Origin: Candidatus Taylorbacteria bacterium RIFCSPHIGHO2_01_FULL_51_15 | GTDB taxonomy: Bacteria > Patescibacteriota > Minisyncoccia > Phycocordibacterales > UBA10002 | Reading direction: 5' to 3' | Assembly: GCA_001820935.1 (NCBI GenBank) | Contig: MHRI01000003.1 | Coordinates: 3,903 to 50,383, forward strand | Length of the DNA stretch: 46,481 bases | Part shown: positions 1,265 through 28,028 of the stretch, one piece after another | How positions within the stretch are numbered: position 1 is the first letter of the stretch | Layout: the number at the start of each line of letters is the position of its first letter | The notes under the pieces: generated by a model | Database searches by the model: none | What the model saw: only the letters and a program-made list of their open reading frames with translations | Told to the model about the DNA's origin: nothing | Program-made: the position numbers and the translations under genes

Positions 1265-1293
1265 TTGACATGAGGATCCTCTCATGTTATCAT
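1265..1293 (+). promoter_or_regulatory. Sigma70-type promoter
   Basis: TTGACA (1265-1270), 17-bp spacer, TATCAT (1288-1293) preceded by TG. Confidence 0.6.
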
Positions 1294-1376: not shown

Positions 1377-1808
1377 ATGAAAAAGTTTCTTGCGGCCATT
1401 GGCGTGCTTACGGTTCTCTACTTTCTGTGGGTCGGAGTCAGTGATTACTCGCTGCGCGACGCCTGCGGAGGGTTAATGTGGTACACAGCACATCCCTCTC
1501 TCATTGGGGACACGTGCGCATTTCTCACCACGGTCTCGCCAGAAGAGATCTGGTCAGGGTGGGCATGTAGGATAGGTGACAAGGTCCTCTACATCTCTCA
1601 CGATGTGCCGACCCTTGCCCTCGGCATTTTATGGGGCATATCGGCTCTTTGTGTGCTCATATGGGGCGCTCGATGCATAGCACGAGCGCGCCTTTTCTTT
1701 ACAGGATTTGCTATACTTGGGAGACCTTTTTACATCCATGAAAAGAAATTCTCTTTGCCGGAATATACCGGTTTTAGCCCATTGTTGCTTCTTTCTCTTT
1801 GTTTTTAG
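1377..1808 (+). CDS. Hypothetical membrane protein; 3' end uncertain
   Basis: ATG 1377 gives MKKFLAAIGVLTVLYFLWVG, with a second hydrophobic helix later; a terminator-like hairpin (1665-1700) lies inside the ORF and the tail overlaps the next gene by 71 nt. Confidence 0.5.
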   Translation: MKKFLAAIGVLTVLYFLWVGVSDYSLRDACGGLMWYTAHPSLIGDTCAFLTTVSPEEIWSGWACRIGDKVLYISHDVPTLALGILWGISALCVLIWGARCIARARLFFTGFAILGRPFYIHEKKFSLPEYTGFSPLLLLSLCF

Positions 1809-4800
1809 TGTCGCGCCTATCACACACGCGGCTTCCGACGCTTTCTTGGGGAAGAATGTTCGTATTGAATTTTCTGCTTTGCCCGCTCCATGGGCCACTT
1901 TTGTTCCACTTCAGGCGGGGGAGAAACCAATTGATCCACTTCTCTGTCTGGATAAGGCGACTTTAGAGCGGAAATATGATAATGATCGTAATACATACCG
2001 TCTCGCCCTTGATAAGGAATCGGAAAAGGTGAGAAATAAGGTAGAGGTGACCGTTCTCTCGCGGCAGAAAGATGACTTGTATAACAGCATCGCGTACCTC
2101 GACCGATTTATTGAAGCGCTACGGACGACAAAGGCGAGTCTTGATACGGCCACGACCATGAGCGGACTTGAACTTATCGCAGTTCCGCTGGGCGGTGATA
2201 TTGCAAAAAAGTATGAAAAACCAAGAACTATTCAAATTAGATGCGTAGAACATAGGAAAAACGATTCACGCACCCCCGAGGTGCCTCTTGGAGTTGGGGA
2301 CGTTGTCACCGAAAAGACTATATATGAGTCAGTTACGGATCAGCAGAAGAAGGAAATAGCCGTTATCAAAAAGACACTTGCCAGTCTTGCGGGAAACATG
2401 GAGAAGAAAATCGCTGATGGCAACATTAACTTACTTTTTGAGTTGCCGGGACTCGTGAAGTCTGCCTTTTCGTTGTTTGGGACTATCGATAAGATCAAAG
2501 AGAACATGGTCCCAGTCACCAGGAAAGCTTTTCAGGAAAGACTTTCCGATCTGCCGCCAGATACAACCTCCTCCTTTCTTTTCACGAAGGTAGCTTCAGG
2601 AAAGAATGTCTTCCCGCCAGTGTCTTCGTGGCCAGACTGGGCAGGGAGTCTCATGCCTGATAGTCGGGTAAAAGATAAAAATGATCTTCAAGAAGGAACA
2701 CTCACGTTAGGCGAGGTGTCGCTTAAACTTGCCATGATTCCTGATAAGCAAACATTAGCTGAAACACGTCTCGAGCTCGCCACGAAAATTCTTGGACTTG
2801 AAAGGCAAAGAAAGGAGTACGAATTAAAGCGCAAGGAAATTTGTAAGAAAATTAATACACTACTCGACACGCTTGCATTGGAGAAGGCGATATATGGTTG
2901 CCCTGATTTGATCCCCGTCAGTCTAGGCGGTGTCACTGGGTATACGAACACCATTGGAGAAACGGTGACGATAAAGGGAAACGGGTTTTCGCCGCAGGGT
3001 AATAGCATTTCCTTTGTGAGCGGGGACGGTGTCGCCCTCGGTTCACTGCGCGATCTCTCTTCCGATGGTGAATCCCTCTCTCTGGTTATCCCCTCGGAGA
3101 TTTTTGAGAAGGGGTCTGTCTCTTTTTATATTTCGGTCAAAAATGCCTCCGGCATCGAAAGCACTCCTCTATGGATTAGGCCCCCTACTATACAAAGGAG
3201 ATCCGATTCCTCACCTTCAGAGACATTGTTTAGCCCCAATCAAAGATATTGCGGAGAAACGGCGACGGATAAACGGATTTTTACGGGAGTGGCTCATGAC
3301 CAAAGCGGAGCGCCGAAGATTGAGGTTCTAGTTGACCCTGAATTTGAAAGAGACACTCTACGGGGGGAGCGGAAAATTACGGGCGATATTCCACTCACAC
3401 CGGTCTATGATTTGGTTGTTCGAGTGACACCCACCATCAATGAATACTGCCTCCCCCAATGGGATGGGAATGATCAGAAAGTGAGTGGGGTGTTGCCACC
3501 AAGCGAGCTACCATTCGATGCTTTTTTGATGGTCGGCGTGAAGGAAGAAGCAATACTGCTCGGTAAGCTGTTGCGCGTCGATAAGAATCCCGTAACTCAA
3601 GAATGGCGTTATGAATGGAAGTTGAAAGGTTGGCAAAATGGAATAGTAGATGCCGCAAAAATGGAAAAACTAATTCTTTCCATTACAAACAACGAGCCTG
3701 TTTACTTGGGTGTACTTACGTATCAAGAGGTGAACGGAGAGCGCGAATTTAAATGGGAAAAATCAAGTGTGTCTTTTTCAGTATGTGCTCCCATGTGGGG
3801 GAGTGGACAACATAAAGTCGTGTTTGGCCGAATGGACAATACAGACTATAGTCTCCCCAAATTTATTCAGGATGCAGAATCAGTGCGAACCAGTGGATTT
3901 GAGAAGACGGACCCATTCAATCAATACAGGAGGTACTTTTCTCATCTTTTGGATTTGCATCTTTCGGATCCGATGCCGTTCAATAATTCATTAATTAAAC
4001 TTGCCAACCCTGTTTCTGGCGGACCACGCTATAACTTAAGAAGACACAACGATACTTTTGCGAATCTTTCCGCTATCGGATCTTCCTGTGGAAATAGTAG
4101 TGTGACGGTGGCGCTCGGTAAGACACTCAATCCGGGCCAAGCGGCCATGAAAGGAAAAGCTTTATTTGTAAATAAGGAAGTAGAAAGGATATTAAAAGCC
4201 GAAAAGTATCATGGATCATTGCCAATCGTTGTCTTGCATGAATTTGGACACGCATTTGCCGGACTCAACGATGAATATGAGTATGGCGGGCCAGACAAGG
4301 AGATACCAATGCCATTTAGAAATTGTAGTACCGTCCCGCAAAGTGCTTGGACGTACAATAATGTGCGTTATGGAGACACGGTACACAAGGGGTGCTCGTA
4401 TTCTTCTGTGTATCGAATTGGCACGGGAGCCAACAAGACGGCGGTGCCTATCTATCGGCCTTCCGACAAAAGCATGATGAAGGCAGCGCAAAGTGGCGAA
4501 TTCCGATTCAATGTTGTTTCTTGCGGATATATTATTGAGGCAATTAAGGGCGGAAAGGCGCAAGATTATTGGCAGGAGTGTATGGGATACGATACGGTCA
4601 AACCGACGGGTGTTGGGGCGTTAAGATATATTTTTAGTCCGCTTCTTTCATTGTTTGATAGAGATTCATCAGGATTGACAGCCCAAGTGGGAGGAGCGAA
4701 TGATACTGATACGACAAATGAAAACGACTATCTAATTATAGAAAGTTTTGACCCGAATGATCCATGGGGCCAGATTATCGAAATCGTGCCGGATTCAGAG

Positions 4801-7800
4801 GCTCCACCGATGGATCCTCCCGAGCAGGAGGTGTCTTTTTGGCAAAGATTTCTAGACTTTTTCTTCCCTAGCAAAGTACCTGTTTCCGTCACTTCTATAA
4901 CGGGCTACACTGGCATCGCGGGCCAGACTGTTACTATAAAGGGCACTGGGTTTAGCGAAACAGGAAACACCCTTTCAGTCACTTCAACAGATAACATTTA
5001 TTTCTCATCTGTTAAAGCAGATTCTTCCGATGGTACCACGTTAACATTCAAAGTACCGCAAGCGCTTATTGACGATGGATACCTTTCATTTTTTGTTTCC
5101 GTGAAAAATGTGACTGGTGTAGAGTCAACTCCCTACTTCCTACGCCCGCCAACGACGCAGCAGCGAAGAGACTCGTCTCCTGCAGGTACTAATCTCGGAC
5201 CCAACCAGAGATATTGCGTGGCTGATACCACCGATACCCGGGTTATTACGGGTGTTCAGGAGCATCTTGACGGATCGCCCAAGATAAAAGTTGTGATTGG
5301 GCAGAAATCTGGGAACAATCTTTTGTGCGGTGGAACGAGTTCGGTGTATGATTTGACTCTCCGTGTGACGCCTATAATCAACGATTACTGTCTTCCGCAT
5401 TGGGATGAAAATGACCAAAAAATCTCGCCAGCGGCTCTTCCTCCGGAGGATTTGCCTTTTCCTGGGCATATCGTCATAGGGGAGTCGCTTGAGTTACAAA
5501 ATGTTCTAGTAGGTCCGGGAGTCCTTAAACGGACAGAAAAGGATGAAAACGGCAATTGGGTATATGAATGGAAGATTGAAAAGTGGCCAGAGGAGGCAAT
5601 GTCTGCCGACAAGTTGAAAAAACTTTTTGAAGCTCTCGGTAGAAATGAACCGATTAATGCTTTATTTGAAATTCCACAACCTGAAGGAAGCCGTGAGAAA
5701 GTTACCGCCTCTATTCCTTTTGATACCAAAGTCCCTCCCGCGCTTGGATTGTATCGAGAGAAACTTTCCCGATTGCAAAATAGTATCGCGGCGGCGCTCG
5801 CGGTGTTTAAACAGAAACAAGACGCGTGGCGTCGAACGCCGAAAAAAGCAGGCGAGATGTCGGTAGGGAATCCCACTATCGATACCCCTCTCTACATTTT
5901 GCGGAAAATGGCCCTAGAAGTGGAAACGGATGGAAATGGGAGTCTGAAAGATCATGCAGGGTTGGTCAAATTCTTTTCACATTTAAAATCACTCCAGTCT
6001 TTTCGTGACGCAACTCTTTCTTCCATCTCCCAGTTTGCAGGGGAGCTTTTGGGCTTTTCCTATCTTTATCCGCCTTCTCCCGCAAAGCCTTTGCTTATAT
6101 TTATACCGGGAGTCGGAGGCGAGCCCGGGTGGAGAGGTGCCACGGAACTTCTCAAGGGTCAGGCAGAAAAGTTCAATATTATCGGCTATACCTATAACCC
6201 CAACGATACACAATTGGCAGATAATCTTATCGCTTCATGGAGCCAGACAAGACTTAATACACATGAGACTGTTATTGCCACCATCTCGATGGGCAATACC
6301 ATACTTCATTCCGCAATTTTGAAGCAAAACGCTCTTTTTTCCAATTCGCACATAGTGAGTGTGGCGTTACTCCCGGGTGGGTCAGCCAAATTTTTTGAAT
6401 ATCCTAATCCGCCGGAATTTTTCCTTTCAGTCGTCCTTCCCCATGGAAACAATATCGCCGCTTATGTGAATCCTAAAAATCAGGTACACACTGCGATCGC
6501 GCAGAATATGCGAAATATTAAAGATTCCACTGCAGGCATTTGCTATATAAACATTCAAAATGACGAGCACATTAATAAATCCAATACTCGCCCCGCGCTA
6601 TCGCTCGCGTACGGAGATTGGAACGGCTATATCGCGAACCGCGACAAAGTTTTTTCGGGAATGAAAGGGAGCAGCATAGAGGTTTCCGCTCCGCAAAGAT
6701 ACAAAAATAATGATGGCACCACCAGCTATGCTCACCACATCAACGGATTTTACGTTCCCGAGCTCAAAACAATAATTGATTCTCTGTGGAGAAAAATCCG
6801 CGTGTTTAAACCCGTGCCCCAATCGTCCGCTCCAAGTCAACTTGCGGCGGTGGGTGCGGCTTTCGGTATCGAAACAAGCGGCGGAAGCGGCAGCTCAATC
6901 GAAACTCTCCAATCGCTTTTAGGGGATTCGACATTTGATGAGTGTGCATACCTGAAAGAGAGATTGGAAGACGGCATGATAATACAAGGGAAAGATTACA
7001 ATGCAATTGCAGATACGGTGAGAGACTATTTAGAATTGATGGGAATCGCTTGTTCGTTTGAAACGCTTGAAAGCGGTGCAAAGCGCGATTTGCAGGAAAT
7101 GGGTTTTGACCCGGATATCGGAGCTGTAGGGATCATGGAAAAAGACATCATTCCCACCATCACCTCCTTTACCGGTTACAGCGCGACTCCGGGCGAGATC
7201 GTGACAATACACGGGAGCGGGTTTTCGCTCCAAGGTAATACCGTGTTTCTGGATGATGGCGACAACCAGTATACGCTGTCCGCCGAGGTCAAGGACAGTA
7301 AGACACTCACGTTTCAAATACCGAGGGGTGCCATCCCACCCGAATACATTTCACTCAAGTCGTTCAATGTGAGCGTCACAAATGCGAGCGGGGGAGTTGC
7401 TTCCAAGTACCTTAGGGCCCCATCAACCACTCGACGCTCGGACGGCTCGCCGGCTACCTCCCTAGGCACGGGAGGAGACAGCCCTAGTGATACCTCTCAA
7501 AATGCGTCGTCGCTCTCCCTTCCAGGATTCTTGCAACGTCTAAGCGGCCTTTTGGATCGTTTTGTCCCGTTCATCATCGGACTCGCGGTCTTCGTCATCT
7601 TGTGGGGCATCTTCATCTATATCACCAAAGCCACTGATGAAGAAAAACGCGCGGAAGCGAAGCAGTTCATTATCTACGGCATTATCGGCGTCTTTGTCAT
7701 GCTCTCCCTCTGGGGGTTTGTTAACTTGCTCCTGAATACCTTTGACATACGGCGGGAGATTGAGGAGGGTGATATTCCTAAAGTTCCAACGATAGAGTAG
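1738..7800 (+). CDS. Giant (~2020 aa) surface protein: IPT/TIG repeats, M64-like zincin, alpha/beta-hydrolase-like domain, C-terminal VirB2/TrbC-like pilin
   Basis: Signal-like N-terminus; three TVTIxGxGFS IPT-like repeats; VLHEFGHAFAGLNDEY; LIFIPGVGG..TISMG; two-TM tail FIIGLAVFVILWGIFIYITKATDEEKRAEAKQFIIYGIIGVFVMLSLWG. Confidence 0.8.
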   Translation: MKRNSLCRNIPVLAHCCFFLFVFSVAPITHAASDAFLGKNVRIEFSALPAPWATFVPLQAGEKPIDPLLCLDKATLERKYDNDRNTYRLALDKESEKVRNKVEVTVLSRQKDDLYNSIAYLDRFIEALRTTKASLDTATTMSGLELIAVPLGGDIAKKYEKPRTIQIRCVEHRKNDSRTPEVPLGVGDVVTEKTIYESVTDQQKKEIAVIKKTLASLAGNMEKKIADGNINLLFELPGLVKSAFSLFGTIDKIKENMVPVTRKAFQERLSDLPPDTTSSFLFTKVASGKNVFPPVSSWPDWAGSLMPDSRVKDKNDLQEGTLTLGEVSLKLAMIPDKQTLAETRLELATKILGLERQRKEYELKRKEICKKINTLLDTLALEKAIYGCPDLIPVSLGGVTGYTNTIGETVTIKGNGFSPQGNSISFVSGDGVALGSLRDLSSDGESLSLVIPSEIFEKGSVSFYISVKNASGIESTPLWIRPPTIQRRSDSSPSETLFSPNQRYCGETATDKRIFTGVAHDQSGAPKIEVLVDPEFERDTLRGERKITGDIPLTPVYDLVVRVTPTINEYCLPQWDGNDQKVSGVLPPSELPFDAFLMVGVKEEAILLGKLLRVDKNPVTQEWRYEWKLKGWQNGIVDAAKMEKLILSITNNEPVYLGVLTYQEVNGEREFKWEKSSVSFSVCAPMWGSGQHKVVFGRMDNTDYSLPKFIQDAESVRTSGFEKTDPFNQYRRYFSHLLDLHLSDPMPFNNSLIKLANPVSGGPRYNLRRHNDTFANLSAIGSSCGNSSVTVALGKTLNPGQAAMKGKALFVNKEVERILKAEKYHGSLPIVVLHEFGHAFAGLNDEYEYGGPDKEIPMPFRNCSTVPQSAWTYNNVRYGDTVHKGCSYSSVYRIGTGANKTAVPIYRPSDKSMMKAAQSGEFRFNVVSCGYIIEAIKGGKAQDYWQECMGYDTVKPTGVGALRYIFSPLLSLFDRDSSGLTAQVGGANDTDTTNENDYLIIESFDPNDPWGQIIEIVPDSEAPPMDPPEQEVSFWQRFLDFFFPSKVPVSVTSITGYTGIAGQTVTIKGTGFSETGNTLSVTSTDNIYFSSVKADSSDGTTLTFKVPQALIDDGYLSFFVSVKNVTGVESTPYFLRPPTTQQRRDSSPAGTNLGPNQRYCVADTTDTRVITGVQEHLDGSPKIKVVIGQKSGNNLLCGGTSSVYDLTLRVTPIINDYCLPHWDENDQKISPAALPPEDLPFPGHIVIGESLELQNVLVGPGVLKRTEKDENGNWVYEWKIEKWPEEAMSADKLKKLFEALGRNEPINALFEIPQPEGSREKVTASIPFDTKVPPALGLYREKLSRLQNSIAAALAVFKQKQDAWRRTPKKAGEMSVGNPTIDTPLYILRKMALEVETDGNGSLKDHAGLVKFFSHLKSLQSFRDATLSSISQFAGELLGFSYLYPPSPAKPLLIFIPGVGGEPGWRGATELLKGQAEKFNIIGYTYNPNDTQLADNLIASWSQTRLNTHETVIATISMGNTILHSAILKQNALFSNSHIVSVALLPGGSAKFFEYPNPPEFFLSVVLPHGNNIAAYVNPKNQVHTAIAQNMRNIKDSTAGICYINIQNDEHINKSNTRPALSLAYGDWNGYIANRDKVFSGMKGSSIEVSAPQRYKNNDGTTSYAHHINGFYVPELKTIIDSLWRKIRVFKPVPQSSAPSQLAAVGAAFGIETSGGSGSSIETLQSLLGDSTFDECAYLKERLEDGMIIQGKDYNAIADTVRDYLELMGIACSFETLESGAKRDLQEMGFDPDIGAVGIMEKDIIPTITSFTGYSATPGEIVTIHGSGFSLQGNTVFLDDGDNQYTLSAEVKDSKTLTFQIPRGAIPPEYISLKSFNVSVTNASGGVASKYLRAPSTTRRSDGSPATSLGTGGDSPSDTSQNASSLSLPGFLQRLSGLLDRFVPFIIGLAVFVILWGIFIYITKATDEEKRAEAKQFIIYGIIGVFVMLSLWGFVNLLLNTFDIRREIEEGDIPKVPTIE

Positions 7801-7833: not shown

Positions 7834-8514
7834 GTGATTTCATTTGAAAAAGTTTCAAAAATCTATAGCGACAGTTCAGCGGCTCTTGATGAGGTTTCGC
7901 TTACCATCCGGACTAAAGAGTTCGTTTCCATTGTGGGCCACTCCGGAGCGGGGAAAACGACTTTGCTTAAAATGATTCTCGCGGAAGAACGTCCCACGAG
8001 TGGGAACATTCTCTTCGAATCAACCAACATTCACAAGCTGAAACGCCACAAGCTCCACGAGTATCGGCGGAAAATAGGAGCTATTTTTCAGGATTTTCGC
8101 CTGTTATCGGGGAAAACAGCCTTTGAAAACATCGCCTTTGCCATGGAGATGGCGGGGCGGAGCAACAAAGAGATTGCCGCCGACGTACCCTACGTGCTCG
8201 AAATGGTTGATTTGGGAAGCAAGATGTGGAACTTCCCACATGAGCTCTCGGGAGGCGAAAAACAACGAGTCGCGATCGCTCGGGCAATTGTGAATCAACC
8301 TGACCTCGTGATCGCCGATGAACCAACAGGCAGCCTTGATCCGATTAACACCTACGACATCGTGCAGATTTTGAAGAAGATAAATGATCTTGGTACCACG
8401 GTTATTCTGACTACGCACAATAAGGGGGTGATCGATTCTTTGGGGAAGCGGGTGATTACCATGGAAAAAGGGAAAGTGATACGCGATGATCCCACCGGCA
8501 AATACGTTTTATAA
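7834..8514 (+). CDS. ftsE: Cell division ATP-binding protein FtsE
   Basis: GHSGAGKT Walker A, IFQDFRLL, LSGGEKQRVAIARA, IADEPTG; upstream of ftsX. Confidence 0.93.
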   Translation: MISFEKVSKIYSDSSAALDEVSLTIRTKEFVSIVGHSGAGKTTLLKMILAEERPTSGNILFESTNIHKLKRHKLHEYRRKIGAIFQDFRLLSGKTAFENIAFAMEMAGRSNKEIAADVPYVLEMVDLGSKMWNFPHELSGGEKQRVAIARAIVNQPDLVIADEPTGSLDPINTYDIVQILKKINDLGTTVILTTHNKGVIDSLGKRVITMEKGKVIRDDPTGKYVL

Positions 8515-8691: not shown

Positions 8692-9615
8692 ATGTGGACT
8701 TCAACTAAGCGCGTAATCAAGGCAGGTTTTATGAGTTTCTATCGAAACGGCTTTGTTTCGCTTGCCTCGGTACTCATCATGACCATCACGCTTTTCGTCA
8801 TAGGAAGCGTCATCTTCCTTTCGGCGACACTGACCGCCTCTCTCGAAGAAATAAAGAGCAAAGTTGATGTGAACGTGTACTTTCTCACGAGCGCCTCTGA
8901 AGCAGAAGTGCTCGCGCTCGCGTCCTCGCTCCGCGTCCTTCCGGAAGTGCAGGAAGTGGAGTATATCTCGCGCGAACAGGCGCTCGAGAATTTCAAGAAA
9001 CGACATGAAAACGACGAGCTCACCCTGCAGGCGCTTTCGGAACTTTCAGAAAACCCACTCGGCGCGGTACTCAATATTCGCGCTAAAGAACCTTCCGAAT
9101 ATGAGGGTATCGCCAACTTCTTGAAGCGAGACAGTGCCCTTTCCAGTACGCAAGAAAACATCATTGATGAGGTAAACTACTATGACAACAAAGCCTCGAT
9201 CGATAAGCTCTCCGGCATCATGAACGCGGCGGAGCGCCTTGGATTTGGCTTCGCACTTCTCCTCGTCATCATCTCGATACTCATCGCGTTCAACACGATT
9301 CGCCTCGCGATCTATATCTCGCGAGACGAAATTGGGGTGATGCGCCTTGTCGGAGCGAGTAACACCTACATCCGCGGGCCCTTCGTGGTCTCGGGAGTGC
9401 TCTACGGTACCCTTGCCGCGCTCCTCACGCTTGCTCTCTTTTACCCGCTCACGTATTATCTGGGGGATGCGACGGAAGCGTTCTTCAGCGGACTGAACCT
9501 CTTTGCGTACTACCTGTCGCACTTTGGCGACTTCTTTCTTATTATCATAGGTTCCGGCATCATCCTTGGGGCTCTCTCAAGTTTCCTTGCCGTTCGTCGG
9601 TATCTAAATGTATAA
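8692..9615 (+). CDS. ftsX: Cell division permease FtsX
   Basis: 4-TM layout, VEYISREQALENFK, FNTIRLAIYISRDEIGVMRLVGASNTYIRGPF. Confidence 0.93.
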   Translation: MWTSTKRVIKAGFMSFYRNGFVSLASVLIMTITLFVIGSVIFLSATLTASLEEIKSKVDVNVYFLTSASEAEVLALASSLRVLPEVQEVEYISREQALENFKKRHENDELTLQALSELSENPLGAVLNIRAKEPSEYEGIANFLKRDSALSSTQENIIDEVNYYDNKASIDKLSGIMNAAERLGFGFALLLVIISILIAFNTIRLAIYISRDEIGVMRLVGASNTYIRGPFVVSGVLYGTLAALLTLALFYPLTYYLGDATEAFFSGLNLFAYYLSHFGDFFLIIIGSGIILGALSSFLAVRRYLNV

Positions 9616-9802: not shown

Positions 9803-11458
9803 ATGGCACCTAAAAATAGAAAGTATATTTTTGTAGTTGGAGGCGTTATGTCGAGCGTCGGCAAAGGAGTCGCCGCCGCCTCAATCGGCACCATTCTGCA
9901 GGGCAAGGGATTCAAAGTCACGGCGATGAAAATAGACCCGTACGTCAATGTAGACGCGGGCACCATGAACCCCACCGAGCACGGCGAGGTTTTTGTGTTG
10001 AATGACGGGATGGAGTGCGATCAGGACATGGGTAATTATGAACGGTTCCTCGGCATCGATCTTACCCGAACAAATTACATGACTACGGGGAGCATCTATC
10101 TTCGAGTCATTCAAAAAGAGCGCAATTTGGAATACAAGGGAAGATGCGTGCACGTGGTGCCCGATATTCCGCTCGCGGCCATTGAACAAATCAAAAAGGC
10201 GGGAGAAGAGGCCGATGCCGATATCGTCATCATCGAAGTCGGGGGAACCGTGGGCGATTACCAAAATGTGTTATATCTCGAGGCGGTTCGATTCATGAAG
10301 TTCGCGGAGCCCGATGACACGCTTCTCGTGCTCGTAAGCTACATACCGGCGCTTGGCGTAGGGGGCAACGAGCTCAAAACCAAACCGACCCAGCACGCGG
10401 TTCGGTTTCTCAACGCCTCCGGGCTTCACCCCGACATGGTCCTTGCTCGTTCACCAGTTGCGATTGATGAAAAACGCAAGGAGAAACTTGAATACATGTG
10501 TGGGCTCGCGAAAGGGAGCATCATTTCTGCTCCGGATGTGGATTCCATTTACGACATCCCTCTCAATTTTGAGAAAGATGACCTCAGCGGTTTCATCCTA
10601 AAGAAGCTCCGTTTGGAGTCGTCAACGAAAGACTTAAAGGAGTGGAGAGCGCTCTCGGAGAAAAGACGCGCGACGACGGAAACGATAAGCATCGGCATTG
10701 TCGGCAAGTATTTTGATACCGGCAATTTCGTGCTCTCTGACGCGTACATTTCGGTCATCGAGGCCGTAAAGCATTCGGCTTATTTCATCGGGAGAAAACC
10801 GGTCATGACGTGGATCAACTCAAAAGATTTTGAGACGGGGGCGAAGGATGTCTCGATGCTCAAAGAGTTTGACGGTATCCTCGTACCGGGTGGATTCGGG
10901 GAGAGCGGGATTGAGGGTAAAATTAAGGCGATACAATTCGCGCGCGAAAATAAGATACCCTACTTCGGCCTCTGCTACGGTATGCAACTTGCGGTCATTG
11001 AATACGCACGACATGTTGCTAATCTCACTCTCGCAAATACCACAGAAATAAAACCGGACACAGCGCACCCGGTCATTGACATCATGCCGGAGCAGAAAAA
11101 ACACATGGCGGAAGGAAAGTACGGTGCCACTATGCGTCTTGGAGCATATCCTGCACATCTTACAAAAGGAACCATCGCCGCAGAGGCGTATGGCAAGGAA
11201 GAAATCTCCGAGCGTCATCGACACCGCTTTGAAGTAAACCCGGAATATATCGAGAAACTTGAAAAGGCCGGCCTCGTCTTCTCCGGGCGTTCTCCGGACG
11301 GGGTACTCATGGAGATTGCTGAACTCCCGCGCGAAGTACACCCATTCTTTCTCGGTACGCAGTTCCACCCCGAGCTCCAAGCAAGACCGCTTGCGCCGCA
11401 CCCGCTTTTCACCGCCTTCTTAAAGGCAGCCAGCGCACGTAAGAAAATCGGTGTATGA
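9803..11458 (+). CDS. pyrG: CTP synthase
   Basis: GGVMSSVGKG, KIDPYVNVDAGTMNPTEHGEVFV, GLCYGMQ, ERHRHRFE, QFHPE. Confidence 0.97.
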   Translation: MAPKNRKYIFVVGGVMSSVGKGVAAASIGTILQGKGFKVTAMKIDPYVNVDAGTMNPTEHGEVFVLNDGMECDQDMGNYERFLGIDLTRTNYMTTGSIYLRVIQKERNLEYKGRCVHVVPDIPLAAIEQIKKAGEEADADIVIIEVGGTVGDYQNVLYLEAVRFMKFAEPDDTLLVLVSYIPALGVGGNELKTKPTQHAVRFLNASGLHPDMVLARSPVAIDEKRKEKLEYMCGLAKGSIISAPDVDSIYDIPLNFEKDDLSGFILKKLRLESSTKDLKEWRALSEKRRATTETISIGIVGKYFDTGNFVLSDAYISVIEAVKHSAYFIGRKPVMTWINSKDFETGAKDVSMLKEFDGILVPGGFGESGIEGKIKAIQFARENKIPYFGLCYGMQLAVIEYARHVANLTLANTTEIKPDTAHPVIDIMPEQKKHMAEGKYGATMRLGAYPAHLTKGTIAAEAYGKEEISERHRHRFEVNPEYIEKLEKAGLVFSGRSPDGVLMEIAELPREVHPFFLGTQFHPELQARPLAPHPLFTAFLKAASARKKIGV

Positions 11459-17868: not shown

Positions 17869-20800
17869 TTAACGCCTAAGCGCTTGAAGGGAGGCGAGAA
17901 TACCCTGCAGACTCTCGAGAATACTCGCGAGCTTTGAAGAAGTGTTGGAATCAAACGCACTCGCGGTGCCTCCATACAGGGAAGAGATTTCAGAATCCGA
18001 CAGCGGGCGATTGTACACGCGCACTTCGTCAATTGCGCCGTGGAAAGCCTCACCTTGACTATCATTGCCGATGCTATTTGCCGTATAGCCGATCGCTTCG
18101 CTGTAGCGATTGGTCGCTTTGCCATCAATGTATAGTGTTGCAGTTCCGCCGTTTTTCACTACCGCTACATGGTGCCATGAATCAGTGCTGACAGGAGCAG
18201 AGTCATTGTTATTTGTGCCGAATCCGTAAAAGCGCACGACGCGAGTATCTCCCATGAAGTAGAGCCCGGCGCTCGCGTTCCCATTTACAAAGAGTCCCCC
18301 ATAGGTATCGAGCGGAGAGACTGCGTTAATCCACATCGAAATGGTGTGGGTGTTGCCGAGTGTAATGTTAGGAAGAGAGATCGCATCGTCAACGCCGTCA
18401 AAGGAGAGGGCTTGGCCGATTTTGCCTGTCGTGGAGGTCGGGCCATTTTGAAGCACGCCGTGGTTTCCACTGCCCGAAGCGTCCGTCGCCGTGCCATCGT
18501 CAAATTTCCAATGTCCAACAAGTCCCACCGAGAGGGAACTCCCACTCGAAGATCCTGAGCTTGTCGAAGGACTCCCCCCAACCACAATCGAGACGCTGTC
18601 GGAAGCGTTCTCGCCATTATCTTTGTAGCAACGGACACCGAAGCTAAGCGTCGAGGGGAGCGTGTCGGCGGAGAGGGTTGCCTTAGTGGTTACCGTGGTA
18701 GACCACTTTCCCGAACTTCCCGCTCCGACCCAATAGAGACCGCTTTCGGTTTTTGCGTTTGCGCCAAAGGCCGTACAGTAGGTGGCATTTTGCGAAGTCC
18801 ACGAGAAGGTGACGCTCGCGCCATTTGCCACAGATGCCGGCGCATCCGACCCGTCTATCTTGAAATCAACGGAAACGGGACCGGTTACAGGCACGGGGAC
18901 CACATTGGTACTGCATGTGGCGGTCGCGGACCCTGCGGCGGAACTTGCCGTTACAGAGATGTTTTTGGAGCCCGTCGTGCTGTAGGAATTCCGCAGTGAG
19001 CTTGAGTGTCTGTAGGTGCCATCCGAGGACAATTTGCTAAAGCCCGTAGTCGTCACGGAATTTATGTCTGTCCCCGTCCAGAAATAGTTGAAGGACTCGC
19101 CGTTTCCAGAATGGCTTGCCGTCCAGAGAACTTCTTTACCAACTTGAGGATTCGCCTCGCTCGGTGAGCAGGAGACGGTGAGTTGTGCAGGAGGAACTAA
19201 GTTGAAATACCCGCTCCACGCTTCATCGCTTGACGAGAATGGACCAGTTTGATCGGGGAACATATGTGCTCTGAACTTGCCATTTACTATCCCTGTATTC
19301 ACGTTTACATTGTAATACCCGAGGTACGATTCATAATTACGCGCTATCGGAAGGACGGTTCCATCTGATTTTACGAGTTCAATGACCAATTTTCTTGATA
19401 GGTCCCAACCTTCCGCCTTCCATTGAAATTTGATCACTCCATACTTACCGCTAATCACATCTCCCTCGAGTGGCGAGAGGACGGTGAGAGAGGATGCTGA
19501 TCCCGTAGAACCTGAAATGCTTACCGTCGGACCTTTTTCTGCGGTAAGAATGTAAGGTGAAATCCGAGTGCCTGAAGCGACACCAAAGACATTACTTTGT
19601 GAGGAAGAAAGTAAGGAAAGACCCCATTGATACGAATTTCCTTGAGGGGCGCCGGCACGCACGTCGCATTTAAGCAGAATATTATCAACAGTTCCACCCT
19701 TCATCAAAAACCCTCCGCCATCAAGAGTGAAGACATACTGTGTACTTAGTGCGCCGCTTGGGTTCACTGTGTTAGAGCCCGTTGTCAAACGTATTCCGCT
19801 CTTCTCTGAATACAGCGCACAGTTGCTTAGATCGGTTGCCCGAGCTCCTGTGGTATCCGTGTAATAGAGAGGAAAGGAGAGATTCACCATACGAGCATCT
19901 TCGCTTATTTGAGTTGCATCAAACTGATACTTCGTAAACAGTAATTGACTTACACCATCAGGAGTCTTGGACGAACCCGTCGCATTCAGTATTCCTATCA
20001 TCAGCTTTCCTGCTGTGTTCGGTTTGACGATGGTAAAATGAGAGTCGCTTGTATCGGATATTGAAGTCGTCCCATCCGAACCACGAATACTTATAGTGTA
20101 ACGGCCAGGAGATAGTGTACTCGGGATATTCCACACATATGAACTAGTATTTATATTTTCAGCTATAATCCCTGTGGATTTAGTGTCCACATTTTCGTAT
20201 GTGATGTGGAAGTTGGATACGCCAGCAGCTAACAATCGTATGGTATATGGTACACCAATTGTGAGCACTTCGTCCCCATTCGGGCTAGCGACAATAACTT
20301 CAATAATCTTCACATTTTGCACCTGGGTCGTAGTCACCCCTTTACAGTCAGAAACTGTTACTACTACTTTGTAAGTGCCAACTTCGGACCATGCATGACT
20401 CGCACTGAAATTCCAACCCGCACCTGTCTGATTGCACACTCTTGGAGTGGGGGCGAGAGCAGTGCCATCGCCCCAATCGACTGACCAAGCCAAGTCATCG
20501 TTGTCTGCATCTTTGGCAGTCCAGGAAAAATTAACAATCTTTTTCTTTGTTATACTTTCGGTATTGGTAACACTGGTTACAATCTCTGGTGGACGATTGG
20601 TGGTAGTATCCCACGGACGCGGCTGTGCGTTTTTAGCGGTGGAGCCGTAATACTTCACCGAAGCGGGCAGAGTGAATGTGCTATTCGAACCGGAATTTCT
20701 GCGGACGATGAAGTAAGGGGAAGTAAGGGTACTTGGGTCAACACTTGTGGCGAGGCCAATTTGCCGCCATTGTCCTTGCCAGCGATATAGTGTAGCGCTA

Positions 20801-23373
20801 GCAGAATCTAATCTATCGGGAGGATTGGAAGCAAAGAAGAAAAGCTCATCGAGACGAATGCCAGGGAATGCAGATTCCACAAAACCGTAGTCGCTTAAGT
20901 CTTTCAAGGTAATCGGTCCTTTGAAGTAGTGGTCGTTGCCGACAGTGATGGGGACGGTTTGAAGGTAAGGTCTCTCTGCTACATCCAAATAATAGAAGCG
21001 TTCAACCGTTGTCGAACCCGGATCTTCGAATTTGAGCACTCCGTTAACACCGGCTATTCCCGTACCTACATATACCCAGCTTGTCTGATCCGTTGAAGCG
21101 TAGATGTTAACGGATAGTTTCGGCTGGGTGGAAAAAGTAACGTTCCAATGACCGTTATCGAGTAGCGTCTTTGAAACAACATTTTGGGAAGGAATTATTC
21201 TCCTAACGGTAATCAACACTTTTGAAGTCGCGAATCTACCTTTGCCATCAGTAATAATATAGGTAAAACTATCATCACCTACATATCCAACTGGAGGGGT
21301 GTAGTTTATGTGCATGTCTGTTAATTGTATAGTTCCTCCCCTCTCACTTGAAGGACCAATAGAAGAGATACTGAGAGGAACTCCGCCATTTCTACTACTG
21401 GCCTGACTCTCGGGACCCACCACTTTCGCCACAAGAAGATTTGCAGTCTCGTACGTCCTCACTTCCATTGAAGTCGTGTCGCCGACTAAGGTTGAACCTC
21501 CCACATTCACACTCGCGCTGGTTTTGGCGGAGAGACCGCTTGCATCCATTACCGTAAAGACGGGCGTAAAGACACCCGAGCGGCTATAGGTGTGGGTGAA
21601 AGTGCTTGTTTGAACAAAAGAAGGTGAAATCGAGGAAGAACTTACTACGCCAGAAGACGCAGTGGAAACCTCATCACCCCACACGACTGAATACTTGAGT
21701 GAAGTGCCGTCGGGGTCATACGCTTTCACTGTCCAAGTTCCTGTCTGACCAACCTGCAAGGAAGTCGGCGCTTCAAGTCCGGAGATGACGGGAGTACCTG
21801 TTTGAGTTGCAGTGGATGTAATCTTAAAATACGAATCGCTTGAGTCGCAGATACCTGTACCCGACTGACAGACTTGCATGGTGTACGCGCCGTCTGGTGC
21901 AAGGCCATCAAAAAGGTTTGTAACCTTACCCACATGCCAGGAATACGACGACCCACTAACGCCTGTGGCAATGGGATAGGAAGTTTGCCGAACATTCGTT
22001 GTTGGATCATTGACACACGCAATTCCTATTTTGCACGGTGCAGGGTAGGGAGAAGAGTAAGGCGTGAGTGTTAGGTCATAGGATGGCGACGGAAAACCAG
22101 GCGTACAATTAACAGGAGAACTTCCTAAACAGGTGCGAAGTGGAGTATTATCTTCCCACTTAATCGTCTGTGTCGTTCCTTTTTGCCAAACTTCTCCACC
22201 ATTTGGTGAGCTGACGATTATGGAAGAAGGAGGTGTCACCGGCGGTATCTCCCTTAAATCAATTGTCCTTCGATCATCGTTTACAGTGAGAGAAGCAACC
22301 TCCTCATCACGAAGCTCTCCAGAAGAAGAAACACTTCGAATCTTAAAGGTGTACTTCCCGGGGTTACTGTTCCAGAAGGGACCGATGCCATCTTCAAGAA
22401 ACGGGTTTATTGAAATGCCACTTTCGGATACGAGATTGAGGAAGAAGATCTCCGGATCTCTTCCCCCCTCCTCTGGCGCCACAGAGACTTTTACGTCCTT
22501 TCCGTGAATTGATATGTTGGTCACAAATGGCTGCCTTTCTCCTCTTCTTGCGTCCAGGACATTTGTAATACGATAGCCGTTTGGATCGACAAACAGGTCA
22601 GCGGAGAAATACTCCGGTTGCCCACCCCCTTGCTCTCGCATCATAAACTTCACGACATACACACCAATGCTTAGATTTGGGAAATTGAATGTATCGAGGC
22701 GAACTGGCGTACCGTTTTTATACACAGCGAGAAAGAGTTCATTCGTAACCGTGCCGCTTGAATTCATCACGCGAAAGCGCGTGGCAGTGTTAGTGTCTAT
22801 AAAATTGCTTAAATTGGAGTCGCATCCATACAAAGCATTTAGCTTTGCCAGTGTGGATTTACCGACAAACCCCGTACCGCGGGTGAGGCCAGCGGGGGTC
22901 AATATTTCAGAAGCATACCGTTCCTGAAAACCAACAACAGCCGCCGCGGTGGCTTCGCCGAAGTAGCCATCATATTCAGCCTTGAGAAATCCACCCAAGC
23001 TAAGCACATACTGAAGTGCTTTGACGTCAGTCCCCTCGTCGCCGACTCGCAAAGGCTCTGTAAAGTTGTGGCAGTAACGCGCTGGGCTCGTCGGACTTGT
23101 CGAAACACCCCCGGAAGAAGAACCTCCTGATGATCCTCCTCCACCCGAAGATCCGCTACTTGATGTGGAAGGAACCGAAGGGGTTCCTCCGTTCAGAGAT
23201 ATCTCCACATTTTGCGTGACCACCTCGTCGGCTCCAAATGAACGCAGGAGCGAGAGAATCGCCTGAATTTGATCGGAGGTCAGGCCGGCAGCTTGCGCGA
23301 AAGAGAAGGTTGGTGAAAAGACGAATGCAAACGAGAGAAGACCGACGACGGCGAGTTTGGCGAGATATTTCAT
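17869..23373 (-). CDS. Giant (1834 aa) cell-surface protein: PG-binding, Ser/Thr-rich Ig-like, PKD, cadherin-like and C-terminal LamG domains
   Basis: Signal peptide; LRVGDEGTDVKALQ..DGYFGEATAAAVVGFQ; SPNGGEVW repeats; YSVVWGD and WSVDWGDG; YTPPVGYVGDDSFTYIITDG; GLVGHWKFDD..ALSFDG..GAIDEVRVYNRPLS. Confidence 0.88.
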   Translation of the reverse strand: MKYLAKLAVVGLLSFAFVFSPTFSFAQAAGLTSDQIQAILSLLRSFGADEVVTQNVEISLNGGTPSVPSTSSSGSSGGGGSSGGSSSGGVSTSPTSPARYCHNFTEPLRVGDEGTDVKALQYVLSLGGFLKAEYDGYFGEATAAAVVGFQERYASEILTPAGLTRGTGFVGKSTLAKLNALYGCDSNLSNFIDTNTATRFRVMNSSGTVTNELFLAVYKNGTPVRLDTFNFPNLSIGVYVVKFMMREQGGGQPEYFSADLFVDPNGYRITNVLDARRGERQPFVTNISIHGKDVKVSVAPEEGGRDPEIFFLNLVSESGISINPFLEDGIGPFWNSNPGKYTFKIRSVSSSGELRDEEVASLTVNDDRRTIDLREIPPVTPPSSIIVSSPNGGEVWQKGTTQTIKWEDNTPLRTCLGSSPVNCTPGFPSPSYDLTLTPYSSPYPAPCKIGIACVNDPTTNVRQTSYPIATGVSGSSYSWHVGKVTNLFDGLAPDGAYTMQVCQSGTGICDSSDSYFKITSTATQTGTPVISGLEAPTSLQVGQTGTWTVKAYDPDGTSLKYSVVWGDEVSTASSGVVSSSSISPSFVQTSTFTHTYSRSGVFTPVFTVMDASGLSAKTSASVNVGGSTLVGDTTSMEVRTYETANLLVAKVVGPESQASSRNGGVPLSISSIGPSSERGGTIQLTDMHINYTPPVGYVGDDSFTYIITDGKGRFATSKVLITVRRIIPSQNVVSKTLLDNGHWNVTFSTQPKLSVNIYASTDQTSWVYVGTGIAGVNGVLKFEDPGSTTVERFYYLDVAERPYLQTVPITVGNDHYFKGPITLKDLSDYGFVESAFPGIRLDELFFFASNPPDRLDSASATLYRWQGQWRQIGLATSVDPSTLTSPYFIVRRNSGSNSTFTLPASVKYYGSTAKNAQPRPWDTTTNRPPEIVTSVTNTESITKKKIVNFSWTAKDADNDDLAWSVDWGDGTALAPTPRVCNQTGAGWNFSASHAWSEVGTYKVVVTVSDCKGVTTTQVQNVKIIEVIVASPNGDEVLTIGVPYTIRLLAAGVSNFHITYENVDTKSTGIIAENINTSSYVWNIPSTLSPGRYTISIRGSDGTTSISDTSDSHFTIVKPNTAGKLMIGILNATGSSKTPDGVSQLLFTKYQFDATQISEDARMVNLSFPLYYTDTTGARATDLSNCALYSEKSGIRLTTGSNTVNPSGALSTQYVFTLDGGGFLMKGGTVDNILLKCDVRAGAPQGNSYQWGLSLLSSSQSNVFGVASGTRISPYILTAEKGPTVSISGSTGSASSLTVLSPLEGDVISGKYGVIKFQWKAEGWDLSRKLVIELVKSDGTVLPIARNYESYLGYYNVNVNTGIVNGKFRAHMFPDQTGPFSSSDEAWSGYFNLVPPAQLTVSCSPSEANPQVGKEVLWTASHSGNGESFNYFWTGTDINSVTTTGFSKLSSDGTYRHSSSLRNSYSTTGSKNISVTASSAAGSATATCSTNVVPVPVTGPVSVDFKIDGSDAPASVANGASVTFSWTSQNATYCTAFGANAKTESGLYWVGAGSSGKWSTTVTTKATLSADTLPSTLSFGVRCYKDNGENASDSVSIVVGGSPSTSSGSSSGSSLSVGLVGHWKFDDGTATDASGSGNHGVLQNGPTSTTGKIGQALSFDGVDDAISLPNITLGNTHTISMWINAVSPLDTYGGLFVNGNASAGLYFMGDTRVVRFYGFGTNNNDSAPVSTDSWHHVAVVKNGGTATLYIDGKATNRYSEAIGYTANSIGNDSQGEAFHGAIDEVRVYNRPLSDSEISSLYGGTASAFDSNTSSKLASILESLQGILASLQALRR

Positions 23374-27143: not shown

Positions 27144-27893
27144 ATGAAAACGGTACTTGTCGGCGTGCTGAAATCGCGGGCTGATCTTACCATCCTCCTC
27201 AAAGAAAAATGGTATCGGATTCCACTCCGGTTTTTGCCGAAGCGACTCTTTACGCACATCGCGTTTTATCAGCCGCTCTCGCTCGGGAGGAAGGGAAAGC
27301 GGATCGAATACTACGCCCGCGTCGCAAAGAGAGAAATAAAAAAGCGCATCGAACTTCTTCCAAGAGAGTCTCTGCACCTTCGCGCCTACCACGACTATCT
27401 CAAATGTTCGTTTCGAAAAGTGGAAAAGCTCGAAAGGCCGATTCGCAATACCATCCCGCGCCGCGTCTCTTTCGGCTTTACCGACCTTAAGACGCTTCGA
27501 TCCGCGAAGGACATCTTAGAGCTCTACCACGTCGCGCCGACCGAACAAATTATCGAACAGGAATTACAACGTCGGAATATCTCGGTAACTTCGCAGTATC
27601 GGCTCTCTCTTAATTCCTCCTTTCCTAAAGGAGGTGGCGAATCTTCGAGCCGGAGGATTTTCCGCCTTGACCTGGCTGTTTTCTGCAAAAACGGCAACCT
27701 CGCCATCGAGTGCGACAACCGCAAAGCCCATGCGTCGAAGCGCCAGAAGCTCTGGGATACGCAAAAAGATACTGCGCTCAAAAGAAGCGGTTGGCGGGTC
27801 ATTCGTCTTACCGAAAGAGATATTCTCGAGGATCTTGATACCTGTATCTCCCGTATTCGCACGCACATCAGATCCTTCGGTGGCACCTCTTGA
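27144..27893 (+). CDS. DUF559 (Vsr-like PD-(D/E)XK) endonuclease-domain protein
   Basis: C-terminal RLDLAVFC..LAIECD..H..DTQKDTALKRSGWRVIRLTE; N-terminal WYRIP domain; in-frame repeat at 27611-27660. Confidence 0.85.
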   Translation: MKTVLVGVLKSRADLTILLKEKWYRIPLRFLPKRLFTHIAFYQPLSLGRKGKRIEYYARVAKREIKKRIELLPRESLHLRAYHDYLKCSFRKVEKLERPIRNTIPRRVSFGFTDLKTLRSAKDILELYHVAPTEQIIEQELQRRNISVTSQYRLSLNSSFPKGGGESSSRRIFRLDLAVFCKNGNLAIECDNRKAHASKRQKLWDTQKDTALKRSGWRVIRLTERDILEDLDTCISRIRTHIRSFGGTS

Positions 27894-28028
27894 TAGCCAC
27901 TCTCTTTCTTTTCGTTTGCTTATCTATGTTCTAATTCGCGCGAATAAGCAAATAGACGCAGTGGGCACATTTGTGAGGTTTTTGCATGTCGTTACACATA
28001 ATTTCATCTCCGTATTATACTCTTTCGT

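Follow-up and report, generated by a model that had tools for sequence, protein, structure and literature searches.

An open reading frame of 2,020 codons between prfB and ftsE

We analysed a 46,481-nucleotide stretch (hereafter the window) of contig MHRI01000003.1 from Candidatus Taylorbacteria bacterium RIFCSPHIGHO2_01_FULL_51_15, in which a single forward-strand open reading frame (ORF), 1738..7800, encodes a giant protein of 2,020 residues that joins an M64-like peptidase and an alpha/beta-hydrolase to a VirB2-like pilin module at its C terminus. The ORF is flanked by housekeeping genes, namely prfB (370-1242) on one side and ftsE (7834-8514), ftsX (8692-9615) and pyrG (9803-11458) on the other; neither virB4 nor any other gene of a type IV secretion system (T4SS) adjoins it. 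In the frame listing and translation, the ORF starts with an ATG at 1738. An alternative TTG start lies at 1708, with the stop codon ending at 7800 in both cases, and we prefer 1738 because the ATG there gives the protein a Sec signal peptide of typical form. In the public gene call (P0002), the giant starts at residue 37 and thereby loses the signal peptide, probably because of overlap with a possible small gene at 1377-1808 (+). This possible membrane-protein gene (MKKFLAAIGVL..., ~143 residues, without a Pfam family) sits between prfB and the giant and overlaps the giant's ATG by 71 nucleotides (nt) in a different frame. A strong sigma-70-like promoter match (TTGACA, 17-nt spacer, TG, TATCAT; 11/12) is present at 1265-1293 (+), just past the prfB stop codon and ~445 nt 5' of the giant's start.

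Contigs from three other sequencing runs (X3, X4 and X5, from three studies) match the ORF at 99% identity or more with zero indels. They span the stretch from the zincin (the peptidase) through IPT2 and X2 to the hydrolase (4142-5743), and that from the hydrolase through IPT3 to the tail (6210-7602 and 6763-7798). Because these contigs bridge the domain junctions, the ORF is not an assembly chimera, and the fusion is real DNA. With 36 contigs totalling 849 kb, the host assembly reaches 91% completeness. G+C content across the giant gene (2001-7000) is ~46%, compared with 48-54% for the genome's contigs, and this low value, together with patchy presence in the genus, suggests that the giant is an accessory, possibly transferred, gene.

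The features of the giant are collected in Table 1. The original prediction, drawn from the sequence of the window, had named two copies of a ~260-residue module, a third IPT part, the zincin motif and the motifs TISMG, IFIPGVGG, LTAQVGGA and QLAAVGAA, and translation places every one of them where it had been reported. The 260-residue module has two parts: an IPT/TIG domain with the linker RPPTxxRRxD(S/G)SP, followed by a 160-residue domain that we call X.

Table 1 Features of the 2,020-residue protein, in window coordinates
Feature	Residues	Position	Strand	Basis
Sec-type signal peptide (basic n-region, hydrophobic core, THA/A)	1-31	1738..1830	+	translation
N-terminal domain, apparently helical	35-388	1840..2901	+	weak coiled-coil match, FPP, E 0.28
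IPT/TIG 1 and linker RPPTIQRRSDSSP	389-498	2902..3231	+	Pfam TIG, internal repeat
Domain X1 (PNQRYC...YEWK), beta-rich partner of the M64-like peptidase	499-661	3232..3720	+	relatives' architecture, AlphaFold2
M64-like zinc metallopeptidase catalytic domain	662-960	3721..4617	+	profile, fold, motif HEFGHAFAGLND (834-845)
Post-zincin linker (LTAQVGGA) and conserved beta-hairpin YLIIESFDPNDPWGQIIEIVPD	961-1043	4618..4866	+	columns of alignment A1
IPT/TIG 2 and linker RPPTTQQRRDSSP	1044-1153	4867..5196	+	Pfam, internal repeat
Domain X2, divergent orphan X, no zincin behind	1154-1312	5197..5673	+	identity comparison
Helical sub-domain before hydrolase, LGLY..KL..L motif	1313-1440	5674..6057	+	AlphaFold2, 6 sequences
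Alpha/beta-hydrolase domain	1441-1735	6058..6942	+	AlphaFold2, Foldseek, VIA, conservation
Conserved post-hydrolase segment; QLAAVGAA just upstream	1736-1802	6943..7143	+	relatives
IPT/TIG 3 and linker RAPSTTRRSDGSP	1803-1910	7144..7467	+	best Pfam TIG stretch 1806-1885
Ser/Gly/Thr-rich tether	1911-1926	7468..7515	+	translation; Pro-rich tethers here in relatives
VirB2-like T4SS pilin module	1927-2006	7516..7755	+	PF18895, array pilins
C-terminal extension, motif EGDIPKVPTIE, then stop codon		7756..7800	+	motif recurrence in relatives

A hydropathy scan finds a single hydrophobic segment outside the tail, at residues 10-28 within the signal peptide. The N-terminal domain has no Pfam family and no usable match in a language-model (Atlas) feature search; it recurs downstream of the zincin in P0004, P0008, P0013, P0023, P0033 and a contig of a same-genus genome (G001:C59). 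Those relatives that bear an organism name belong to metagenome-assembled genomes of Patescibacteria, assigned to the Parcubacteria group, Ca. Taylorbacteria, Ca. Nomurabacteria, Paceibacterota and similar groups.

The C terminus is a close paralogue of the genome's pilins

The C terminus had been likened to a VirB2-type pilin, and this likeness held up. The tail matches T4SS_pilin (PF18895) at 35.4 bits against a cut-off of 26.6 (E 1.1e-8, residues 1946-1998) and at 42.5 bits in the genome scan; with the NCBIfam model Mbov_0395 pilin-like it scores 29.7, below the cut-off of 40. Two hydrophobic segments (residues 1942-1960 and 1974-2002) enclose a short charged loop, so that the last 95 residues run from an amphipathic lead-in through hydrophobic helix 1 and the loop TKATDEEKRAEAKQ to hydrophobic helix 2 and a brief extension with EGDIPKVPTIE at its end.

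The genome holds eight PF18895 matches, comprising the giant's tail and the seven members of an array that follows a solute-binding-protein gene on contig C9. Identity between the tail and array pilins is 64% over 94 residues for L009:11166-11507 (E 1e-46), 49% over 111 residues for L009:10410-10958 (47/80 in the core; E 5e-33), 44% over 101 residues for L009:12078-12473 (E 2e-33) and 40% over 91 residues for L009:10009-10368 (E 2e-24). At the DNA level, the best tail-array pair shares 80% identity over 184 nt. The array pilin closest to the tail (L009:11166-11507; C9:20165-20506 in its own genome) is a stop-to-stop frame of 116 residues that begins at the amphipathic lead-in, with neither signal peptide nor ectodomain. 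Within Patescibacteria pilin arrays, the available text of a phylum-wide survey gives a mean identity of 25% and a maximum of 54% (PMC12102498). Because 64% exceeds these published within-array values, we consider the tail a closely related paralogue of the pilins in the array and not the generic transmembrane hairpin that would have spoken against the original prediction. When the tail (alignment A3) was co-folded, without controls, with L009:10410-10958 in three copies (alignment A4), the score was 0.00, which is evidence neither way.

The tail recurs behind unrelated ectodomains and beside M64-like genes

Tails 57-71% identical to that of the giant occur in P0078-P0083, proteins of 248-610 residues built to one plan: a signal peptide, an unrelated ectodomain (coiled coil, IPT/TIG, Pro-rich tether) and the pilin module at the extreme C terminus. 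The end motif G[DS][IV]P[KT][VA]PT recurs in P0078-P0082 and in the tail genes of genomes G001, G003, G010 and G015. Across 12 aligned tails whose ectodomains are unrelated, ten residues are invariant. At 36 loci of species-representative genomes, tail-bearing frames measure 80-372 residues; the match extends past the traced frame at L090 and L097, and contig ends cut L075 and L099. The giant, at 2,020 residues, is the extreme of a size continuum of tail proteins, and the variable part is the ectodomain in front of the pilin tail. Larger pilin-domain frames from the same order (G021, G022, G027 and G031) were set aside as a different architecture, with the pilin domain near the N terminus or in mid-protein.

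Peptidase and tail also meet elsewhere. M64-like proteins of other clusters end in T4SS_pilin in P0030 (888 residues), P0040 (685 residues) and P0060 (1,568 residues), the last of which additionally carries the hydrolase and an IPT domain; the tails of these three proteins are more distant. We located ftsE in 19 of 20 same-genus genomes. Directly 5' of it stands a tail gene, 58-66% identical to the giant's tail, in 6 of the 19 (G001, G002, G003, G004, G010 and G015) and prfB with no tail gene in 8 (G005, G007, G009, G011, G012, G014, G016 and G020); the upstream side is undecidable in the other 5 (G006, G008, G013, G017 and G019). Where enough upstream sequence is present (G001, G003 and G015), the tail is a separate gene of 267, 202 and 372 residues, respectively, that encodes a signal peptide of its own and stands behind a giant M64-like gene (more than 1,204 residues in G001, 1,118 in G003 and more than 1,595 in G015, where one additional gene lies between the two). 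In the genome of the giant, enzyme gene and tail gene are one frame. Peptidase and pilin-tailed protein are thus linked by adjacency, and by fusion here and in three other lineages. The varied contents between prfB and ftsE mark the slot as a variable surface-protein site. At the G003 locus (L060, on G003:C29), X and zincin of the large M64-like gene lie in two overlapping frames, 2627-3301 and 3207-6563, reflecting either a frameshift (pseudogene) or a sequencing error, and the pilin-tail frame starts immediately past the stop codon of that gene.

A divergent M64-like peptidase with an obligate N-terminal domain

The zincin motif of the giant, HEFGHAFAGLNDEY at residues 834-847 (nt 4237-4278), contains an exact HEXXHXXXGXXD with H834, E835, H838 and D845. 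This is the defining motif of peptidase family M64; in the family members BF3526 and ThomasA, both His residues and the Asp are zinc ligands, while the Glu acts as catalytic base (PMC12402451). The H/E/H/D set is invariant in 34 aligned X-plus-zincin sequences, which also share many near-invariant Cys residues. As far as sequence goes, E846 directly after the motif and several near-invariant Cys are present; the second, structural zinc site of M64 consists of a Glu and three Cys.

Profile and fold comparisons agreed with the M64 likeness claimed at the outset. A profile matched the Protein Data Bank (PDB) entries 3p1v (E 1.1e-7), 4df9 (E 6.3e-6) and, less closely, the T. ramosa IgA protease 9ekk (E 0.0088). 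AlphaFold2 modelled the X-plus-zincin unit with a predicted local distance difference test score (pLDDT) of 80.9 and a predicted template modelling score (pTM) of 0.80; pLDDT is ~79-98 over most of X1 and falls below 50 in the post-zincin linker (segment positions 462-497). The best Foldseek match of the peptidase model was BF3526 (E 1.1e-10). In VIA-align, where the alignment to M64 structures covered the catalytic domain alone, the model reached Z 16.7 against BF3526 (9qdi_E; root-mean-square deviation 3.0 over 211 residues, 21% identity) and Z 15.4 against 3p1v, with lower values (Z 9-11.5) for other metzincins.

Among the family profiles to which the prediction had pointed, TIG and T4SS_pilin score above their cut-offs and Peptidase_M64 (PF09471), whose match falls on the HEFGH site, does not, at 15.9 bits against a cut-off of 26. 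One relative, P0061, is alone in exceeding that cut-off (33.2 bits). Because it falls below Pfam's threshold, we file the enzyme as M64-like and not as a family member; it represents a divergent M64-like subfamily with its own obligate N-terminal domain, X.

Domain X is the partner of the peptidase, and its second copy is an orphan

The two module copies occupy residues 393-655 (nt 2914-3700) and 1048-1308 (nt 4879-5660). Residues 389-655 and 1044-1306 align colinearly with 43% identity over 272 residues (E 3e-78), and a third copy, limited to the IPT domain and the RRSDxSP linker (residues 1806-1908, nt 7153-7460), is 38-44% identical (E 1e-15 to 5e-21). The giant thus contains an internal duplication of ~270 residues far beyond chance. 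IPT/TIG (PF01833) is found in three stretches, at 45 bits against a cut-off of 20.9. The IPT-linker unit stands twice before X and once before the tether to the pilin tail; among the collected proteins it is present in the giant alone, and it is this unit that forms the real spacer.

In the original prediction, the module was a carrier presenting swappable enzymes, so that a search with it should have returned varying downstream cargo. We searched residues 389-661 against 1.84 billion representative proteins, which gave 74 matches at E <=0.001, one of them the giant itself. Most of these cover query residues 111-270 only, which is domain X, and in most relatives X lies directly behind the signal peptide. 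When the giant's segments were mapped onto all matches, 60 non-self proteins carried X, and in 48 of them a zincin follows within 60 residues. Ten of the remaining 12 are at most 241 residues long and too short to tell; P0069 has its zincin further downstream, and P0047 (683 residues) has none. Because the zincin follows X in this way, X is a fixed N-terminal partner of the peptidase and not a general carrier, and the invariant X-zincin order is the very architecture that the prediction had named as its own refutation.

The giant does present X1 before the zincin and X2 before the hydrolase, and two X copies also occur in P0003 and P0004, an arrangement that a generic IPT-plus-X carrier of interchangeable enzymes would explain. 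No relative, however, shows X followed by the hydrolase, and X2 is the most divergent X: it is 40% identical to X1 and 30-40% to the family, compared with 43-47% between X1 and the X of other proteins, and it lacks 8 residues at the position of the family's near-invariant VDPxFE...ER helix (V34, D35, F38 and R47 in alignment A1). The carrier reading is therefore largely refuted, and we hold it to be highly improbable. From sequence, X2 reads as an orphaned, diverging copy of X without a peptidase, and the duplication is best read as a doubling of the IPT-linker-X unit, after which the second X, having lost its peptidase or been without one from the start, diverged. In a FastTree tree of 59 X domains, X1 and X2 are not sisters; the tree is unsupported and midpoint-rooted, and we draw nothing from it.

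The second enzyme has an alpha/beta-hydrolase fold

Residues 1313-1735 have no Pfam match, and a sequence search against PDB chains returned nothing below E 1. Relatives of the segment are P0053 (59% identity), P0076 (40%), P0077 (34%, a 610-residue stand-alone secreted form), P0004, P0060 and an open frame that fills the whole contig G001:C59. The module is rare, occurring in 3 of 61 related genomes searched, that of the giant included. It directly follows the zincin unit in P0004, P0053, P0060, P0076 and G001:C59 and stands alone in P0077; the conserved segment behind it (residues 1736-1802) accompanies it in P0004, P0060, P0077 and G001:C59.

The AlphaFold2 model, built on a six-row alignment, has a pLDDT of 65.8 and a pTM of 0.70 and shows four helices and then a core in which strands and helices alternate. 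Helices at positions 25-124 of the segment correspond to the sub-domain of residues 1313-1440, which is conserved in six sequences. Among the Foldseek rows listed from 3fnb (E 1.5e-5) down, most are alpha/beta hydrolases, with probability ~1.0 to many. VIA gave Z ~13-14 to thioesterases, lipases and esterases and Z >=8 for 849 of 1,000 chains, with no single family outstanding. The Atlas feature search scored 0.92 to DUF676/PGAP1-type hydrolases, which we treat as a lead only.

A candidate catalytic triad consists of S1517 (TISMG, after a strand), D1609 (after the next-to-last strand) and H1667 (after the last strand), in canonical order. The elbow TISMGN spans residues 1515-1520 (nt 6280), its first residue being Thr. 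In the six-sequence alignment, S205, H299 and H355 (segment numbering) are invariant and position 297 is D or E; H1611 is likewise invariant. The second cargo, proposed to be hydrolase-like, thus has the fold and a conserved Ser/Asp/His set to match.

Linker motifs and the possibility of processing

Similar linkers had been noted after both enzymes, and these motifs recur in relatives. The motif L-T/A-A-Q/A-V-G lies at 4675-4698 and ~6860-6885 of the window; zincin relatives carry QTAAVG or LTAQVVG at the corresponding post-zincin position, and the giant's version resembles the signal-peptide end of the pilin-tailed P0081 (SLTAQVAGA). The motif could be the relic of a signal peptide, or mark a site of cleavage. 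Behind each IPT domain comes a dibasic linker, RR(S/R)D(S/G)SP, at 3199-3219, 5164-5187 and 7438-7458 (residues 488-494, 1143-1150 and 1901-1907), and these linkers could be processing sites.

Such sites would fit a polyprotein or giant pro-pilin whose ectodomain, once exported, is cut off at one of two kinds of site, the three RRxD(S/G)SP linkers or else the motifs L-T/A-A-Q/A-V-G, to give free enzymes and an ordinary small pilin, much as classical propilins shed a long leader. In keeping with this, the dibasic linker follows all three IPT domains and is confined to the giant among the proteins collected. In stand-alone relatives, X begins immediately behind the signal peptide, with a free N terminus that cleavage at RR would restore. 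The LTAQVGGA-type motif recurs behind the zincin in relatives, in its strict form in 6 of the zincin homologues collected, and the linkers are modelled as disordered. We nevertheless judge processing improbable: the proposed cleavage motifs are short, and relatives encode enzyme and tail as separate genes with their own signal peptides, so that cleavage is not needed to obtain separate parts.

Secretion machinery in the genome

Of 41 related genomes searched, the giant's own included, 37 carry T4SS_pilin genes. The VirB4 family (PF03135) has no match in the 91%-complete genome. AAA_10 and DUF87, tried as other routes to VirB4, yielded only FtsK and VirD4/TraD-like ATPases. Five ATPases of the VirD4/VirB4 superfamily pass the Pfam cut-offs for TrwB_AAD_bind or TraG-D_C. 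These VirD4/TraD-like paralogues are scattered (C30:9607-11805, C35:143-1909, C7:45925-48813, C5:9998-11830 and C5:26557-28014), and none adjoins pilin or VirB6-like genes; a hydropathy scan of three of them (C35, C5:26557 and C7) showed no membrane segment at the N terminus. A 1,044-residue protein with 7 predicted membrane segments, encoded where contig C11 ends, has a weak TrbL/VirB6 match (TrbL E 0.007). In the survey of PMC12102498, as far as its available text goes, a pilin gene lies near virB4 in 1,135 of 1,948 assemblies, and adjacency to virB4 is therefore not strictly defining for pilins.

A surface-tethered pair of enzymes

We moderately favour the reading that the giant is a Sec-exported, modular VirB2-like pilin tethering two enzymes at the cell surface. 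Its ectodomain (~1,900 residues) would comprise, in order, the helical N-terminal domain, an IPT domain, X with the M64-like peptidase, a second IPT domain, the orphan X, the hydrolase (esterase/lipase/thioesterase-like), a third IPT domain and the tether. The hairpin would insert in the membrane as array pilins do, with the ectodomain outside. VirB2-type pilins have both termini outside and the loop towards the cytoplasm or the pilus lumen, and from this topology we infer that the ectodomain would be exposed and tethered by the flexible Ser/Gly-rich linker. Both hydrolases would sit on a long jointed stalk, from which they could cut proteins and ester-linked envelope components, either of a host cell or on the surface of the bacterium itself. 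The most likely role would be contact-dependent trimming of proteins and ester-linked components in the host's or its own envelope by an episymbiont that has to draw building blocks from its host.

It is possible, if doubtful, that the pilin module also lets a type IV secretion pilus machinery take the giant up as a rare or terminal subunit. Incorporation would have to be rare, because a load of 1,900 residues per subunit is sterically incompatible with a homopolymer. The same load size speaks against polymerisation, and so favours a plain membrane anchor, in which the hairpin does no more than hold the enzymes in the membrane and its likeness to array pilins reflects common descent only. The gene's distance from secretion genes, the missing VirB4 family match and the fact that the pilin array itself follows a solute-binding-protein gene, distant from the ATPases, point the same way. 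Simple anchors usually drift fast, however, and this tail retains 58-66% identity across six same-genus genomes and 57-71% in P0078-P0083, behind ectodomains that are unrelated; the C-terminal G-D-I-P-K-V-P-T motif is kept past the second helix, and the tail is nearer to array pilins than these usually are to one another (PMC12102498, in the text available). On balance we regard a plain anchor as rather unlikely.

Several observations weigh against a pilin that displays two active enzymes. The giant lies between prfB and ftsEX, away from secretion genes; VirB4 has no family match; the five ATPases, while above Pfam cut-offs, are far below those of NCBIfam; and the available text of PMC10633639 and PMC12857230 terms the VirB2-like proteins of Patescibacteria predicted pilins. 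A pilin tail occurs in only 3 of the 61 relatives with X, from which it follows that most enzymes of the X-zincin family work without one. On the enzymes themselves, the peptidase does not reach the Peptidase_M64 cut-off, the hydrolase model is moderately confident (pLDDT 65.8) and based on 6 sequences, and its elbow is T-x-S-x-G and not G-x-S-x-G.

In the only Patescibacteria species tested, the epibiotic lifestyle depends on the T4SS genes and pilin arrays. An essential array is known from Ca. Southlakia epibionticum ML1; Patescibacteria pilin arrays are treated by Quinonero-Coronel et al. 2025 (PMC12102498) and Wang et al. 2023 (PMC10633639). The accessible text of the phylum-wide survey reports that no adhesins such as PrgB were detected for these systems (PMC12102498). 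A broader proposal, which we consider unlikely, is that the VirB2-like hairpin of Patescibacteria is a portable display module: T4SS pilus machinery would extrude rare adhesin- or enzyme-bearing subunits besides small pilins, and the giant would be one of them, bringing a protease and an esterase/lipase to the host envelope. If true, the giant would be the 'missing adhesin/effector' of a T4SS that is essential to Patescibacteria yet unexplained. The pilin-tailed family, with ectodomains from a few dozen to 1,900 residues, provides candidates for what pilins present to the host. The giant also shows that very large N-terminal loads can be borne by a conjugative-type pilin fold in nature, in parallel with modular type 4 pilins. 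It further defines the divergent M64-like subfamily with its obligate N-terminal domain and a rare hydrolase module restricted to few Patescibacteria. We found no description of enzyme-pilin fusions in the literature searched; Supplementary Table S3 of PMC12102498 may list long matches.

Other features of the window

A second giant surface protein of 1,834 residues is encoded at 17869-23373 (-), with PG_binding_1, Big_9/cadherin-like, PKD and C-terminal LamG-type lectin domains. At 27144-29822 (+), an MTES_1575/DUF559 endonuclease-like gene adjoins a PIF1-family helicase with HTH_40; this pair could be a remnant of a defence system or mobile element.

Comparison with known systems

The giant's tail shares with the VirB2-like pilin arrays of Patescibacteria the match to PF18895, 40-64% identity to four array members and a two-helix hairpin with a short charged loop. 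Array pilins are small, however, with frames mostly of 80-330 residues in the 41 genomes searched, whereas the giant carries a two-enzyme ectodomain of 1,900 residues and sits between prfB and ftsE, outside the array. In their available text, the papers on array pilins (PMC12102498 and PMC10633639) make no mention of fused forms.

With peptidase family M64, represented by Thomasclavelia ramosa ThomasA/IgAse, BF3526 (4df9 and 9qdi) and the B. ovatus structure 3p1v, the giant's peptidase has in common the exact HEXXHXXXGXXD followed by E-Y, the catalytic fold (Z 15.4-16.7, 21-23% identity) and an extra N-terminal domain before the catalytic domain. It differs in its sub-threshold Pfam score and its wealth of conserved cysteines and in its occurrence in Patescibacteria, which make immunoglobulin an implausible substrate.

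Modular type IV pilins such as PilB of Streptococcus sanguinis (Raynaud et al. 2021, described in the available part of PMC8179133) likewise graft a bulky functional module onto a pilin module for display. There, a class III signal peptide and an N-terminal helix are followed by an extra module at the C terminus; the giant has a Sec signal with no class III signal, an N-terminal load and a C-terminal hairpin. Fold and machinery are unrelated between the two, and the likeness is an analogy of design only.

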